Source: Candidatus Saccharimonadota bacterium
GTDB lineage: Bacteria; Patescibacteriota; Gracilibacteria; BD1-5; UBA2023
Reading direction: 5' to 3'
Assembly: GCA_042852035.1 (NCBI GenBank)
Contig: BAAFHK010000003.1
Span: 60,001 to 92,000 of the forward strand
Length of the DNA stretch: 32,000 nt
In this document: positions 22,872 through 30,424 of the stretch, one piece after another
Numbering within the stretch: position 1 is the first letter of the stretch
Layout of the letters: each line of letters opens with the position of its first letter
Program-made: the position numbers and the translations under genes
The notes under the pieces: generated by a model
Database searches by the model: none
What the model was told of the DNA's origin: nothing
The model's input: the letters and a program-made list of their open reading frames with translations, nothing else

Positions 22872-23492
22872 TTACTGTAATTCCTTCTCTACCTCTCAGG
22901 CAATCTTAATCGAAGGTTTAAGAGTTTTTGCCCCTGGAGTCCATTTTGCTGGACATGCAGTTCCAGGGTTTGCCTCCATGTATTGGAGAGCCTCTATCTT
23001 ACGAAGAAGTTCATCTGCATTTCGTCCGAGTGGACCACTTGTCACCTCAATACCTCGACAAACACCATGTGGATCAATAATAAATGTTCCACGTCCTGCA
23101 ATACCTGATGCTTCATCGAGAATATTATATGCTGCAGCGATTTCTGTATTATGATCAGCAAGCATAAGGTATGGGAAATTTTTCATAAGCCCTTCGTGCT
23201 TTACCCATGCTCGATGAGAAAATACAGTATCAGTAGAAGCCGCGAGAACCGTCACTCCAAGTTCATCAAATTTCGCCTTCACATTTGCCATATCTTTAAG
23301 TTCTGTTGGGCAAACAAAGGTAAAGTCTGCAGGGTAGTAAAATAGAACACTCCACTTCCCACGAAGATCTTCAAGAGAAACATGAGCATCATCATCCTTT
23401 ATAGGATCATAAGCAGGGAGATCAAAGCTCGGTGCAGGCATGTCGATTTTTACCTGTTCAAAAACGAATTCGTGTGAATCACAACAAGACAT
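22872..23492 (-). CDS. ahpC: typical 2-Cys peroxiredoxin (AhpC/Tsa type, 206 aa)
   Basis: ORF 22896-23492 carries the peroxidatic motif FTFVCPTE and the resolving-Cys block GTACPAKWTPGAKTLKPS. The track stop is a TGA, so the frame continues 8 codons to TAA at 22874-22872. The true start may instead be the internal MPAPSFDL. Confidence 0.88.
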
Positions 23493-23571: not shown

Positions 23572-23590
23572 AATGAGAATTATTCTCATT
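23572..23590. promoter_or_regulatory. 19-bp palindromic operator candidate (Fur/PerR-type box) upstream of ahpC
   Basis: AATGAGAAT-T-ATTCTCATT, a perfect 9+1+9 palindrome. It ends 5 nt upstream of the ahpC -35 hexamer. It is nearly identical to the box at 27104-27122. Confidence 0.6.
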
Positions 23591-26591: not shown

Positions 26592-27044
26592 TTATTTTTT
26601 TCCAAGCAGAGCACGGAGCATCCAACGTTTTTTGTCGAGATCTTTCTTTGCTGCAATAATAACATCCTGGGTACAGGGATCATTGTCAGTTTCATCAATA
26701 AATTTACTCATTTCATCAGAAATATGAAGAAGATTATCATGAAGTGCTTTCTGCATATCAGCAGCGGAAAGAGTTCCCTCAAGTTCTGAAATCGTAGTTA
26801 TATGTAAATATTCACTCAGTTTTGAAATTGGATACTCACCAAGGATTCTCACCTGTTCAGCAAAAACATCACTCTGTTCTGAAAGCATATCGTATATATC
26901 TCCAAATATCTCATGATTGTCCTCAAAAACGGGGCCAAGGACATTCCAGTGACAAAATCGTGCATTTTGAGCCGCAACTGTATAAGCCGCAAGAAGATGA
27001 TTCAAGGAATGAATGGAGGGATTATTTTGAGATTCTTTTTTCAT
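26592..27044 (-). CDS. dps: Dps-family DNA-protecting ferritin-like protein (150 aa)
   Basis: Intact ORF with the Dps ferroxidase-site pattern (HWNVLGPVFEDNHEIFGDIYDMLSEQSDVFAEQVRILG). The stop is 9 nt upstream of the ThDP-enzyme start. Confidence 0.88.
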   Translation of the reverse strand: MKKESQNNPSIHSLNHLLAAYTVAAQNARFCHWNVLGPVFEDNHEIFGDIYDMLSEQSDVFAEQVRILGEYPISKLSEYLHITTISELEGTLSAADMQKALHDNLLHISDEMSKFIDETDNDPCTQDVIIAAKKDLDKKRWMLRALLGKK

Positions 27045-27100: not shown

Positions 27101-27125
27101 AATAATGAGAATAATTCTCATTATT
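27101..27125. promoter_or_regulatory. palindromic operator candidate (Fur/PerR-type box) upstream of dps
   Basis: The core is AATGAGAAT-A-ATTCTCATT (27104-27122), extendable to a perfect 25-bp palindrome AATAATGAGAAT-A-ATTCTCATTATT. It ends 4 nt upstream of the dps -35 hexamer and overlaps the stop codon of the ABC ATPase gene (27121-27123). Confidence 0.6.
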
Positions 27126-27855
27126 CTACTTTCATATACTCTCCTTGTGCTTTTATTACTCGCTCCATAAAAAAGTCTTCAATTGGCATTTCAAGTGATC
27201 TCACTTTCATATCGGCTACAATTTTTCCCTGAGCAATGATAGCAAATCGGTCACATATTGCCTCAACATCTGAAAGAATATGGGTATTAAAAAAGAGAGT
27301 TTTTCATTTTTTCTTAAGGTGCAACATGAGATCTTTTACCATTTTTCGACCAATAGGATCAAGTCCACTCATTGGCTCATCAAGGAATATGAGCTCTGGA
27401 TCATGAAGTATTGCTTGAGCAAGCCCAATTCGTTGAAGCATTCATTTTGAATAGGTATGAAGTCTTTTGCTTCGAGCATAAGTGAGTCACACTTGGTTAA
27501 GTACTTCATTCTTTCTCTTTTCTAATTCGCCTCCCTTTAGCCCATAAAATGCAGCGTTGAAATCAAGAAATTCATCTGCAGTAAGGTACTTATAAAGATA
27601 GGTATTTTCTGGCATGAATCCGATACGTTTACGTACCTCTGTATCATCAATTTCTCCGGAAAAAATTTTTATCTCACCCGACGTTGGTCGCATTATCCCA
27701 AGAATACACTTCATTGTCGTTGTTTTTCCAGCTCCATTTGGTCATAAAAACCCAAAAACCTCTCATTCACCTATAGAAAGAGAGATGTCATGAAGAAGGT
27801 GGGACTTACCGACTTTTTTTTCGAGATGAGAAATAGAAAGAGCTTTAACTGACAT
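27121..27855 (-). CDS. ABC transporter ATP-binding protein (244 aa); no permease gene adjacent
   Basis: Walker A is [11 protein letters not shown] with TGA at the Gly. The signature motif is YSKGMLQR with TGA at the Gly. Walker B is [12 protein letters not shown], followed by an H-loop NTHIL. It runs from ATG at 27855-27853 to TAA at 27123-27121. Confidence 0.9.
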
Positions 27856-27947: not shown

Positions 27948-28292
27948 CTAATCTTCTTTTCTTCGTATTTGTACTCGTATTTCTGCTACCTCAAAACCTT
28001 CTGGAATATTTTTTATGAGAACATTCTCGATAGGAAAGTCACAAAAAATTCAAGTTTTTTCATCGACCAAGTGAGCATGAGTCGAAGGATTACATTCATA
28101 GTAGGTTTTTCCGTTAATACCTGGAAAACGACGAATCATCCCCTCTTGGGCCATTGCTTCTATATTTCTATACACTGTGGCTCGACCAATTTTTGGGTTT
28201 TGTTTCTTTACTTCATCAAAAATATCCTCTGCTGAAAGATGCCTACATTCACAGGTATTACAAATTATGTCTCGATATTGATGTTTACGCAT
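27948..28292 (-). CDS. short Fur-family metalloregulator (114 aa), candidate PerR-like regulator
   Basis: ORF 28050-28292 extends across one TGA to TAG at 27950-27948. The winged-helix block is HLSAEDIFDEVKKQNPKIGRATVYRNIEAMAQEGMI, followed by the His-rich block STHAHLVDEKTG. I see no CxxC pairs in the C-terminal half. Confidence 0.75.
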
Positions 28293-28334
28293 ATAACTAC
28301 TTTGAAAGTGTGATAAGAATCAAAACTTCTATTG

Positions 28335-28363
28335 GATTATGAGAATACTCATCAAAAAATCAA
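28335..28363 (-). promoter_or_regulatory. possible fur promoter with an imperfect box in the spacer
   Basis: Minus strand reads TTGATT (28363-28358), a 17-nt spacer, then ATAATC (28340-28335). The imperfect palindrome TATGAGAATACTCAT (28338-28352), which carries one good half-site of the 19-bp box, overlaps the spacer and -10. The sequence is AT-rich, so chance matches are likely. Confidence 0.3.
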
Positions 28364-28370
28364 GCAAATT

Positions 28371-28650
28371 GAGGGGGATGGATCACATCCCCCAAATGGT
28401 TCCTGGAAACACGCCAGGTCAGTAGGAGCGACTGAATCTTGGCAGGGAAGCCTGCCTGAGAAGCTGGAGCTGCAGAAGCACCTGTTGTTGCTGTTGACGC
28501 TGTTGGCGTTGTGTGGTACGCCTTTTTTTCTTTCGGGAAGGATTTCCCCGCTTTACAAGACCACCCATGGATGTCTCCAATTGTCCAAAGCCTCCCGCCG
28601 CACGCCCGTGCGAACAGTCAAGGTCAGAGGATTGCATGATGTTAGCCCTA
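28371..28650. ncRNA. unclassified GC-rich, hairpin-dense element (candidate structured ncRNA); strand unresolved
   Basis: Hand counts give 35/60 G+C for 28371-28430 and for 28551-28610, against 12/60 for the flank at 28671-28730. Five hairpins are visible. (1) gggggat/atccccc, 28373-28393. (2) cctgg/ccagg, 28402-28418. (3) ggcagg-gaag-cctgcc, 28441-28456. (4) ggcgt/acgcc, 28505-28522, followed by T7 at 28523-29. (5) cgcac-gccc-gtgcg, 28599-28612. A UGUUG-rich run covers 28483-28516. No convincing protein reading exists. Confidence 0.45.
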
Positions 28651-28727
28651 TATGAATATTTGTCAATAAAAATACTTGATTCTTAATATTTAATTCTAAA
28701 TTCTCATTTTTTCCATATAATCCATCT

Positions 28728-29351
28728 ATGCCTCATATTCAAGAAATTGATTGGTCCAAACATACCAATATTGCATTAGATGTCGATGAGACTCTCGCAA
28801 CCACACTCATGCCTGGACTTGAGGATTTTCATAAGATGGGAAAAATGTTAGCATTTCAAGATATCTCTCAGATAACTGAATTTAACTGGCAGGAACTTGA
28901 TGGATGTGACATTACCGAAGAAGAATTTCTCACTTACTGGAGAATGCATAATCTCAAATGAATTCTCCCTGTTGAAGATAGCATAGATGGAATCTTTAAA
29001 CTTTCCGAAAAAGGAAAACTTCTCCACGTTATTACCGCTCGAAATGAAAGTGATCATGGAACAGATACGCATGAATGGCTTGGGACATACTTTCCAGAAA
29101 TACACCCAACTCATATCCATTTTGTAAATCATATCTCGAAAAATAGCCTCCCAAAATCGGGACTCTGCAAAAGTTACAATATTAGTCTCCTTATTGATGA
29201 TGGACTCCACAATGCTCTTGATGTTGCAACAAAATGAATATCATGTATCCTTATCAATAAGCCTTGGAATCAAAAAAGTTTTGATCCTCACCTCCCAATC
29301 TACCGAGTAAATAGTTGGAAAGAAATTATACAAAGCCTAAATAGAAAATAA
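28728..29351 (+). CDS. HAD-superfamily 5'(3')-deoxyribonucleotidase-like phosphatase (207 aa)
   Basis: ORF 28728-28961 extends across TGA codons to TAA at 29349-29351. HAD motif I is ALDVDETLA, and a later block is LLIDDGLHNA. A perfect TATAAT at 28716-28721 ends 6 nt before the ATG. Confidence 0.65.
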
Positions 29352-30424
29352 TGCTCTCTCAAAGCACCAAAACCGTTTGAAAAAAACAAAAAATCCTTGT
29401 CGGACTCTCTTGATGAGTCGATTCTGCAGTTTCTGCTTATCTCCTAAAAAAAGAAGGGTATGATGTTGCTTGTGGTTTTATGATTAACTATCTCGATGAA
29501 GAAAACCCTTCTCTTTGCCCCACACTTATCGATCTTGAAGAAGCAAAGAAAGTTGCAGAATATCTTGAGCTTCCACTCTATACTTTCGATTACCGAGAGG
29601 AATATGAAAAGAGGATCGTAGATTACATTTACCAAGAATATAGCGCTGGAAGAACGCCAAATCCTGATGTATTTTGTAATAATCTGGTCAAGTTTGATCT
29701 TTTTCTCGAAGAAGCAACTTCCCTTTGATATGACATGATTGCTACCGGTCATTATGCTCGAATTATGGATAAAAAACTCCATAAATGAGTTGACCCTACA
29801 AAAGACCAGTCCTATTTTCTTTCAAGACTAAGTGAAGAGCAAATTTCCAAAGCCCTCTTTCCTATATGAAATCTTCTTAAATCTGAAGTTCGATTGATTG
29901 CAAAAGAAGCCTGACTTCCAAATGCTGAAAGAAAAGACAGTCAATGACTCTGCTTTATAGGAAAGGTAAGCATGAAGGATTTTCTTGAGAAACGAATACC
30001 AAAAAAACCAGGAAAAATTCTTGATACCCATGGAAAAATAATCGGAGAACATGAAGGCGCTTTTTCATATACGATTTGACAAAGAAAAGGAATCAAAGTA
30101 TGAGGATGACCTGCACTTTTTGTTGTTGGAAAAAATATAAATGAGAATACTATTACCGTAGGAACTGAGGGTGATCTGAATCTCTACTCGAAAAATTGTA
30201 TTTTGAGTGGGTGGGTGTGAACAAATATCACAAGTGATAGAATCTGTTCCGCAAAGATACGATATCGCCAAGAAGATCAAGCTTGTACAATACAAAATAC
30301 TTGATCCTCTTGAGACTATAAGGAACTTCATTTTAACTCTCCGCAAAGAGCTATAACCCCCGGTCAAATTGCGGTTCTATATGATGATAGCTTAGTGATC
30401 GGAAGTGGAATTATTATCGGGTAA
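29351..30424 (+). CDS. mnmA: tRNA-specific 2-thiouridylase (357 aa)
   Basis: The PP-loop reads ILVGLSGGVDSAV with the Gly-Gly encoded by TGATGA. Other blocks are GRTPNPDVFCN, KDQSYFL, DSQGLCFIG and YTIGQRKG. The ATG overlaps the upstream stop (TAATG). The stop is TAA at 30422-30424. Confidence 0.92.

Follow-up and report, generated by a model that had tools for sequence, protein, structure and literature searches.

A GC-rich island upstream of fur in a Gracilibacteria genome is probably a degenerate allele of a microprotein gene with a conserved RNA leader

What is encoded by the GC-rich, hairpin-rich island that separates fur from the mnmA operon in an AT-rich Gracilibacteria genome? The island (positions 28371-28650) belongs to a 32,000-nt stretch of contig BAAFHK010000003.1 (GenBank assembly GCA_042852035.1), which is called the window here. 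It lies in the 435-nt intergenic gap (28293-28727) between fur and an NT5C-type HAD phosphatase gene. A first-pass annotation had given this length correctly and had proposed that the island is an undescribed RNA element, either a plus-strand small RNA (sRNA) under Fur-family control (model A) or a minus-strand RNA (model B). We consider it probable, with moderate confidence, that the island represents a stand-alone microprotein gene whose mRNA has a conserved 5'-terminal hairpin, present here as a degenerate allele. According to this explanation, a small gene on the minus strand would have been inserted between the promoters of the NT5C(HAD)-mnmA and fur-ABC-dps operons, and the island would comprise its leader and body. 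It would be read from a sigma-70 promoter through a 5' stem-loop (SL1), a GGAG/AUG start, and a short basic frame rich in Lys, Arg, and Gln to a terminal hairpin. The window allele would be decaying: its N- and C-terminal motifs would have been lost, no stop codon of genetic code 25 would precede the terminator, and its 3' half would be frameshifted between strains. The host is a Gracilibacteria (BD1-5/"Altimarinota") genome in which TGA is read as glycine (code 25); in this clade, the in-frame TGA codons of fur, the ABC ATPase gene, and mnmA align to Gly in relatives.

The comparison drew on 42 Gracilibacteria loci (L003-L044), collected by scanning GTDB genomes with the Fur protein, and on further loci taken from metagenomes and from contigs encoding members of the Fur cluster. 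Because two independent Logan assemblies (L001 and L002) hold the window sequence at 99.6-99.9% identity, the GC-rich island is real and is not an assembly artefact. In the relatives L003, L004, L005, L009, L010, L019, L024, and L075, the start codons of NT5C (or mnmA) and fur are only 73-115 nt apart, and the short NT5C|fur spacer consists of two conserved back-to-back promoters. The spacer of L008 (155 nt) also has no insert, and its extra sequence lies between the -10 element and the start codon of fur. Extra DNA placed exactly between the two -35 regions was found in the window (435 nt), L006 (343 nt), L007 (318 nt), L096 (345 nt), and L048, the insert of the last being 190 nt long with a weak promoter. 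Shorter pieces of the insert remain in L090-L092 (∼80 nt; L090 lacks a promoter) and in L097-L100 (∼105 nt). By this comparison, the GC-rich unit is an insert that most relatives with the same gene order do not have, and carriers and non-carriers are interspersed in a distance tree of fur plus the ABC gene. No terminal inverted repeats or convincing target-site duplication that would point to a mobile origin were seen at the insert.

The promoter scan located a -35 element TTGACA (28661-28666) and a -10 element TAACAT (28639-28644) on the minus strand. This TTGACA-16-TAACAT pair (28666-28639) matches 10 of the 12 consensus positions and is thus close to a consensus sigma-70 promoter; it has the form TTGACAAA-16-TAnnnT of the family. 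At the same site, TTGACAAA was found in L006 and L007 (11/12 matches each), L096 (10/12), L095, and L097. Applying a 7-nt spacing rule from the -10 element places the predicted transcription start at ∼28632. At the other end, an 8-bp hairpin, GGGGGAUG/CAUCCCCC (28373-28393, minus strand; inverted repeat I4), is the presumed terminator and sits ∼10 nt upstream of the -35 element of fur. Its stem is followed by an interrupted U-run, and the terminator scan made no call there because the T-run was too weak. Canonical intrinsic terminators in the direction of fur were detected at the same position in L006, L007, L048, and L096. As far as they can be read from the DNA, all signals of the inserts point toward fur, which corresponds to the minus strand of the window. 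These comparative signals support the earlier suggestion of an unannotated, independently transcribed unit, and they agree with the strand and the 3' hairpin (28393-28373) of model B, since the promoters and terminators of the homologues all lie in the direction of fur.

The promoter and the first ∼75 transcribed nt are well conserved among the inserts, and the bodies are unalignable between species. Among these genomes, identity at the fourfold degenerate sites of the flanking genes amounts to only 28-42%, i.e., these sites are saturated, so the bodies of the inserts would be expected to be unalignable if they were unconstrained. Despite this saturation, the window and L096 have near-identical promoters and leaders. 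Within the unit, conservation is highest in SL1, a 48-nt stem-loop of 18 pairs (28584-28631, minus strand; RNAalifold consensus) that starts within a few nt of the predicted 5' end. When conservation and covariation were examined in the syntenic relatives, as the first-pass annotation had recommended, the leader proved to be conserved and SL1 to covary. In an alignment of three sequences, 90.7% of the cells were paired and 8 of the 18 pairs showed compensatory changes, values reached by 0-1 of 500 column shuffles, vs. 35-57% paired in slid controls. With five sequences, in an alignment fitted to the model, 90% were paired and 9 of the 18 pairs were compensatory (0 of 500 shuffles; slid controls, 35-58%). 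The three-sequence covariance model recovered L096 (49.6 bits) and L107 (22.3 bits), neither of which had been used in building it, and found no other copy in ∼530 kb of related loci. Directly downstream of SL1, a Shine-Dalgarno (SD)-like GGAG (28575-28578, minus strand) precedes an AUG by 6 nt, and an SD-like site before the AUG also occurs in L006, L007 (AGGAGGUGAU-AUG), L096, L103, and L105. By analogy with stem-loops at the 5' ends of other bacterial mRNAs, SL1 may stabilize or control the mRNA of the mini-gene. The 5' strand of SL1, CUGACCUUGACUGUU (28613-28627), recurs with 80% identity as CUGACCUGGCGUGUU (28408-28422) near the 3' end of the transcript, a similarity that may reflect an internal duplication as the body expanded.

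What the leader precedes is clearest in the relatives. Clean open reading frames (ORFs) of 27-29 codons, rich in Lys and Gln, were found in L096, L006, and L105, with the consensus MAQQ..NDKKKQ.KP..W.KRK. The three peptides (MAQQKQNDKKKQQKPGKPAKDQWKRRK in L096, MAQQRQPANDKKKQEKPKDARGRKWEKRK in L006, and MAQQQNPNNDKKKQPKPKGSKGKSWEKRK in L105) share 15 invariant residues, and the indels between them are in frame. The changes between codons are mostly synonymous: the proportion of nonsynonymous differences (pN) is 0.19-0.33, vs. a proportion of synonymous differences (pS) of 0.66 to >1. The ORFs of L096, L006, and L105 are under purifying selection with a protein-coding signature. Each has an SD sequence upstream and ends at a UAG stop, with the stem of an intrinsic terminator following ∼20-30 nt on. 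The conserved peptide has no match in Pfam or NCBIfam, and the best match in a profile search of the PDB, a segment of eS30 ("KQEKPKQPKGRAYKR"), was non-significant (E = 1.4). A 42-residue form extended to a GTG codon had no match in a protein collection from which ORFs as short as these are missing. Based on the relatives, we infer that the product of the family is a basic microprotein.

In the window, the promoter, SL1, SD sequence, and AUG (28568-28566) are intact, and they lead into a small-ORF remnant or variant (28329-28568, minus strand) with the product MGGLVKRGNPSRKKKRRTTQRQQRQQQQQVLL... Read with code 25, this ORF has 79 codons and runs through the hairpin and the fur promoter to a UAG at 28331-28329; its first in-frame UGA lies at 28421-28419, and there is no in-frame UAA or UAG before 28331-28329. 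The window peptide (MGGLVKRGNPSRKKKRR...) has no more in common with the conserved one than the KKK core and a basic, Gln-rich composition. It has neither the MAQQ, NDKKKQxKP, and WxKRK motifs nor a UAG stop ahead of the terminator. Its reading frame (MGGLVKRGNPSRKKKRRTTQRQQRQQQQQVLLQLQLLRQ...) holds simple repeats of CAACAG and GCTTCY, and one of these, a low-complexity repeat at 28482-28505 (CAACAG on the minus strand, CTGTTG on the plus strand; Tandem Repeats Finder: period 9, 2.7 copies), encodes a Gln/Arg run and explains in part how the body expanded. Over 900 nt, the near-identical strain L002 and the window differ at 4 positions, 3 of them inside the element: a synonymous change at codon 16, a 1-nt deletion at 28452, and one further substitution. 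The deletion shifts the frame from codon 39, and approximately the first 38 codons (28568-28455) are the same as in the window. These features suggest that the GC-rich body is probably a diverged, repeat-expanded, decaying version of the small ORF, which explains why neither a protein nor a known RNA was recognizable in it. The earlier statement that no frame is protein-like therefore holds for the window copy, but the relatives show a unit built around a short ORF. Gene callers miss this ORF because it has fewer than 30 codons in the relatives and no proper stop in the window genome. Searches with the ORF and with six-frame translations of the window gave no match in Pfam or NCBIfam, and among 5.8 billion protein clusters they found only the query's own cluster. 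A six-frame comparison among the inserts detected similarity over the leader only, in all frames, and none that was specific to one frame.

A TGA was also observed where a stop would be expected, shortly before the terminator, in three alleles: the window (28421-28419), L007 (5925-5927), and L104 (79-81). The TGA of L104 replaces the TAA of L103, and these genomes decode TGA as Gly in fur, the ABC gene, and mnmA. The TGA codons at the ends of these small ORFs may represent either the loss of stop codons in decaying alleles or a peculiarity of UGA in short ORFs under code 25.

The state of the window allele raises the question of whether the insert is under selection at all. It might be non-functional relic DNA in this genome, possibly transcribed, an explanation that we regard as unlikely. 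It would account for the patchy distribution and the series of deletions (L048, L090, L097, and the empty sites), for the concentration of three of the four strain differences, including one indel, inside the insert, for the expansion of simple repeats, and for the loss of the conserved peptide motifs and the stop codon. However, the promoter (10/12), an SL1 almost equal to that of L096, the SD sequence, and the AUG have remained intact although neutral sites are saturated. Furthermore, the first 38 codons differ between the strains by a single synonymous change, and a useless insert of 340 nt would be unlikely to last in a streamlined genome.

Several points weigh against a microprotein gene as the explanation of the island. 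First, the homology of the window ORF is based on its position and the shared leader, not on peptide similarity. Second, there are only three clean ORFs and five leaders, and the fitting of the five-sequence SL1 alignment to the model favored structure. Third, the promoter, start site, termination, and translation are predicted from DNA in all of the organisms. Fourth, the same leader carries other cargo elsewhere: a 46-residue basic ORF in L103 and L104, a 49-residue basic ORF in L107, and in L007 a 29-residue peptide with one hydrophobic helix and a basic tail. The start of the L107 peptide, KKSHSKPKSLKG, resembles KKKQPKPKGSKG of L105, and L007 and L107 are counted here as variants of the family that L096, L006, and L105 define. 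With such varied cargo behind the same leader, the locus turns over fast, and this variety (46, 49, or 96 residues, or a hydrophobic 29-mer) means that the conserved unit may be the leader, not one protein. Finally, with its signals and 38 codons intact, the window allele could still work, or its function could reside in the RNA. The 96-residue ORF is that of L095 (1073-1363); it contains four in-frame TGA codons and fills the same slot downstream of the TTGACAAA promoter, without the hairpin. It has no match in Pfam or NCBIfam and no similarity to the other inserts.

The last of these points can be taken further. If the unit were a stand-alone non-coding sRNA in this genome, SL1 and the single-stranded GGAG would be the functional parts, acting by protein binding or base pairing, and the frame would be incidental. 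Trans-acting sRNAs usually have a conserved 5' end, a variable body, and a terminator, and this anatomy is recognizable here: conservation and covariation peak in SL1, the bodies of different species cannot be aligned, and the window ORF has no usable stop and is frameshifted between strains. Nevertheless, we judge this to be rather unlikely. In three relatives, the ORF has stayed clean, with more synonymous than nonsynonymous change, a properly spaced SD sequence and AUG, and a stop before the terminator, and SL1 stands at the extreme 5' end, leaving no free 5' seed. In addition, the minimum free energy (MFE) of the transcripts is unremarkable except in L007, and the search for conserved targets, an RNAduplex comparison with local gene starts of the kind that had been suggested earlier, returned only noise. 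The explanation that we prefer remains that of a gene for a small basic protein with a structured leader.

The composition of the peptides is the basis of another possible function. Lys, Gln, and Glu together account for 48-56% of the residues in the conserved peptide and for 38% of the first 39 codons of the window ORF, vs. 19% in the proteins of the window. The ORF might therefore resemble uof of Escherichia coli, a short ORF upstream of fur that is co-transcribed and translationally coupled with it and is a target of RyhB, according to the account in PMC11550727 (citing Vecerek et al. 2007). Translation of its Lys/Gln-rich codons would then set the balance between stopping at the hairpin and read-through into fur-ABC-dps. 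Several observations fit such a role: the unit is always directly upstream of fur in the same direction, the window hairpin has no proper U-tract, which makes read-through plausible, and the linkage between fur and mnmA is kept across the class. Moreover, the enriched Lys and Gln codons are read by tRNAs that the neighboring MnmA thiolates at U34, and uof-fur provides a precedent for decoding that depends on iron-sulfur (Fe-S)-requiring tRNA modification (PMC11550727). On the other hand, fur has its own conserved promoter past the terminator, most relatives have no insert, strong terminators follow the stop codon by 12-26 nt in L006, L007, and L096, and a search for an alternative antiterminator pairing found none. 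The enrichment in Lys, Gln, and Glu is also absent from the cargo of L103, L107, and L007, and the termini of the peptide are conserved at the protein level, as would be expected of a functional peptide and not of mere translation. A uof-like role is consequently improbable in our assessment. We find it more improbable still, if only slightly, that the mini-gene is a decoding sensor, in which translation of the ORF would report the sulfur, Fe-S, or oxidative state through the MnmA-thiolated tRNAs and would set the read-through of fur-ABC-dps from a promoter that is independent of the regulator box, with SL1 as part of the switch.

This brings us to the box itself, which had been taken as a sign that the element is controlled by Fur. 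The operator of the regulator is a 7-1-7 palindrome of 15 bp, TGAGAATnATTCTCA. The sequences ahead of the peroxiredoxin gene (23574-23588) and of dps (27106-27120) contain perfect copies, and a copy with 3 mismatches lies at 28340-28354. The last one, a palindrome of the GAGAAT type, falls in the spacer of fur's own promoter, TTGATT-16-CATAAT (28336-28363, minus strand), which is outside the mini-gene, 3' of its terminator, and conserved in all relatives, carriers and non-carriers alike. The relatives have the same box at the dps and fur promoters, and twice in dps|fur spacers; no box was found at the mini-gene promoter (28639-28666). Because its host promoter is kept whether or not a relative carries the insert, the box at 28340-28354 can be assigned, on comparative grounds, to the autoregulation of fur and not to the mini-gene. 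Expression of the mini-gene would accordingly be independent of a Fur/PerR-type box, which speaks against Fur control of the element. Judging by these sites, the regulon of prx, dps, and fur looks PerR-like rather than like that of an iron-sensing Fur.

Model A, a Fur-repressed plus-strand sRNA of ∼160 nt that would act like RyhB, PrrF, or FsrA, is scarcely credible after this reassignment. The hairpin with U7 that would terminate it does exist (GGCGT/ACGCC followed by T7; 28505-28529, plus strand), as does the Fur-family half-palindrome at 28340-28354, but the palindrome belongs to the minus-strand promoter of fur and is kept in relatives that do not have the element. The proposed promoter, TTGGAT-N17-AAAAAT, fails the promoter scan. 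It is the reverse complement of the fur promoter region together with the window-specific 5' untranslated region (UTR) of fur, which supplies TTGGAT, and its -35 element is not conserved. In the homologues, the signals are on the opposite strand, and no Rfam family matches. The parallel with RyhB, PrrF, or FsrA also fails on what is conserved, namely a 5' hairpin, an SD sequence, an AUG, and a small ORF that is selected at the protein level in the relatives. With regard to the hairpin, one terminator-like site was found on the plus strand, vs. 0.9 expected. On the coding strand, it corresponds to an A-run of Lys codons followed by a hairpin.

The same hairpin could alternatively terminate an antisense antitoxin, i.e., the RNA of model A ending at 28505-28529, paired with a minus-strand toxin mRNA in an arrangement like a type I toxin-antitoxin system. 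A structured 5' leader, a small ORF, a patchy distribution, and variable cargo are consistent with such a pair, as are the hydrophobic helix and basic tail of the L007 peptide and the antisense-oriented hairpins that the ORF contains in the window, L096, and L105. We consider this very unlikely, however: the conserved and window peptides are hydrophilic and basic and not membrane-active, no antisense promoter is conserved (the one proposed being that of model A), and the antisense hairpins are each at the level of chance. These hairpins follow Lys-Lys-Lys codons in the window (28505-28529, plus strand), L096 (1601-1587, minus strand), and L105 (93-80, minus strand); 0.4-0.9 were expected per region, and an A-run of Lys codons is a U-run on the antisense strand.

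The properties that first drew attention to the island were also quantified. With 54.6% G+C, vs. a window mean of 38.7% (standard deviation 4.0), it is the highest-GC stretch of 280 nt in the 32 kb; the earlier hand count had given 58%; the flanks have 25.6% and 18.2% G+C. All of the hairpins that had been named are present (28373-28393, 28441-28456, 28505-28522 with T7, and 28600-28613), as is the UGUUG run, but the folding energy of the island is not beyond chance (MFE z vs. dinucleotide shuffles, -0.22 on the plus strand and -0.86 on the minus strand). The predicted minus-strand transcript is likewise ordinary (z = -0.94 vs. dinucleotide shuffles), and of the whole transcripts of the relatives, only that of L007 stands out (z = -2.9).

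The claim that the island matches no known RNA family withstood a search of Rfam at curated and permissive thresholds: neither the window nor the relatives had a match at the gathering threshold, and the permissive threshold returned only noise (E > 3). ARAGORN found 0 genes in the island, and neither it nor the covariance models matched a housekeeping RNA (transfer-messenger RNA [tmRNA], RNase P RNA, signal recognition particle [SRP] RNA, 6S RNA, or tRNA). On inspection by eye, tmRNA, RNase P, SRP, and 6S RNA had also been dropped, because the island shows none of their signature motifs and no stem closes its 5' and 3' ends. A blastn search against phages gave no match that would indicate a phage origin. 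Of two pattern scans of viral contigs, one was empty and the other returned chance matches inside a phage coding region, and a scan of metagenomes with the DNA pattern of the leader core gave 0 matches.

The genes around the island are dps (26592-27044), the ABC ATPase gene (27121-27855), and fur (27948-28292; a Fur-family protein of 114 aa), all on the minus strand, followed on the plus strand by the NT5C-type HAD phosphatase gene (28728-29351) and mnmA (29351-30424); the peroxiredoxin gene lies further away (22872-23492, minus strand). Almost all of the 42 Gracilibacteria loci keep fur within ∼1-3 kb of mnmA, in differing gene orders: fur-abc-had-mnmA, mnmA-had|fur, and dps|fur-mnmA. The NT5C/HAD gene of the window has its ATG 6 nt past a TATAAT -10 element (28716-28728), and fur of most relatives has its ATG 7 nt past CATAAT (e.g., L003 5925-6000 and L006 5966-6003). 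In most relatives, with a spacer of ∼76 nt, the NT5C/HAD and fur mRNAs appear to be leaderless. In the window, fur has a 43-nt 5' UTR (28293-28335) between the -10 element and the ATG, which is absent from most relatives, and L004 and L008 have unrelated extra sequence at this site. A perfect 10-nt inverted repeat, TAAGAATCAA / TTGATTCTTA (28314-28323 and 28676-28685, 352 nt apart), encloses the mini-gene and the fur promoter asymmetrically with respect to the insert, and is probably a chance match in AT-rich DNA. In L049 (1-1700) and L103 (1140-1230), the sequence upstream of the fur promoter or the leader switches abruptly to unrelated GC-rich DNA, and these low-coverage metagenome contigs are likely to be chimeric assemblies.

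Compared with known systems, the mini-gene comes closest to small-protein genes that have a structured leader; it is lineage-restricted and has an aberrant form here. It resembles uof as a very short ORF just upstream of a Fur-family gene in the same direction, with codons that rely on a tRNA-modifying enzyme. However, its promoter and terminator are its own, the two sequences are not similar, the terminator and the fur promoter separate the ORF from fur in all clean homologues, and most relatives have no ORF. In Bacillus subtilis, FbpA, FbpB, and FbpC are small basic proteins of 54, 48, and 29 aa regulated by Fur (PMC10730256). They are comparable with the mini-gene in the type of product, i.e., stand-alone genes for strongly basic peptides of 29-54 residues with a link to the Fur family and presumed nucleic-acid binding. 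In contrast, repression of the fbp genes works through Fur boxes located in the fbp promoters, the mini-gene promoter has no box, and its peptide has no Pfam or NCBIfam match.

Similarly, mRNAs with a 5' stem-loop, including those of type I toxins, share with the mini-gene a conserved 5' hairpin, an SD sequence, a small ORF, a terminator, variable cargo, and a patchy distribution, but the peptide of the mini-gene is hydrophilic and basic, except for the L007 allele, and no antitoxin RNA is evident. The small ribosomal proteins bS22, bL37, bTHX, and eS30 are similar to the peptide in size (24-60 aa) and in their richness in Lys and Arg, although the eS30 match was non-significant; unlike the mini-gene, they are not lost, swapped, or frameshifted among close relatives. 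RyhB, PrrF, and FsrA are also small, are located near iron or oxidative-stress genes, and end in a terminator hairpin. The mini-gene differs from them in having no Fur box at its promoter, in lying on the strand opposite to that proposed, in its translated ORF in the relatives, and in matching no Rfam family.

The locus described here, as read from these comparisons, would be a newly defined, previously undescribed microprotein locus with a fast turnover and a conserved RNA leader beside the oxidative-stress regulator of Gracilibacteria. It also illustrates that a GC-rich, hairpin-rich island in the AT-rich genome of a member of the candidate phyla radiation (CPR) is easily mistaken for a structured RNA, when here it is probably a small-ORF gene. 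The reassignment of the regulator box makes the autoregulation of fur part of the prx/dps regulon. If the decoding sensor, which we regard as improbable, were nevertheless true, it would link tRNA thiolation to stress regulation, giving the CPR an equivalent of the "iron-responsive decoding" described for uof-fur in E. coli.

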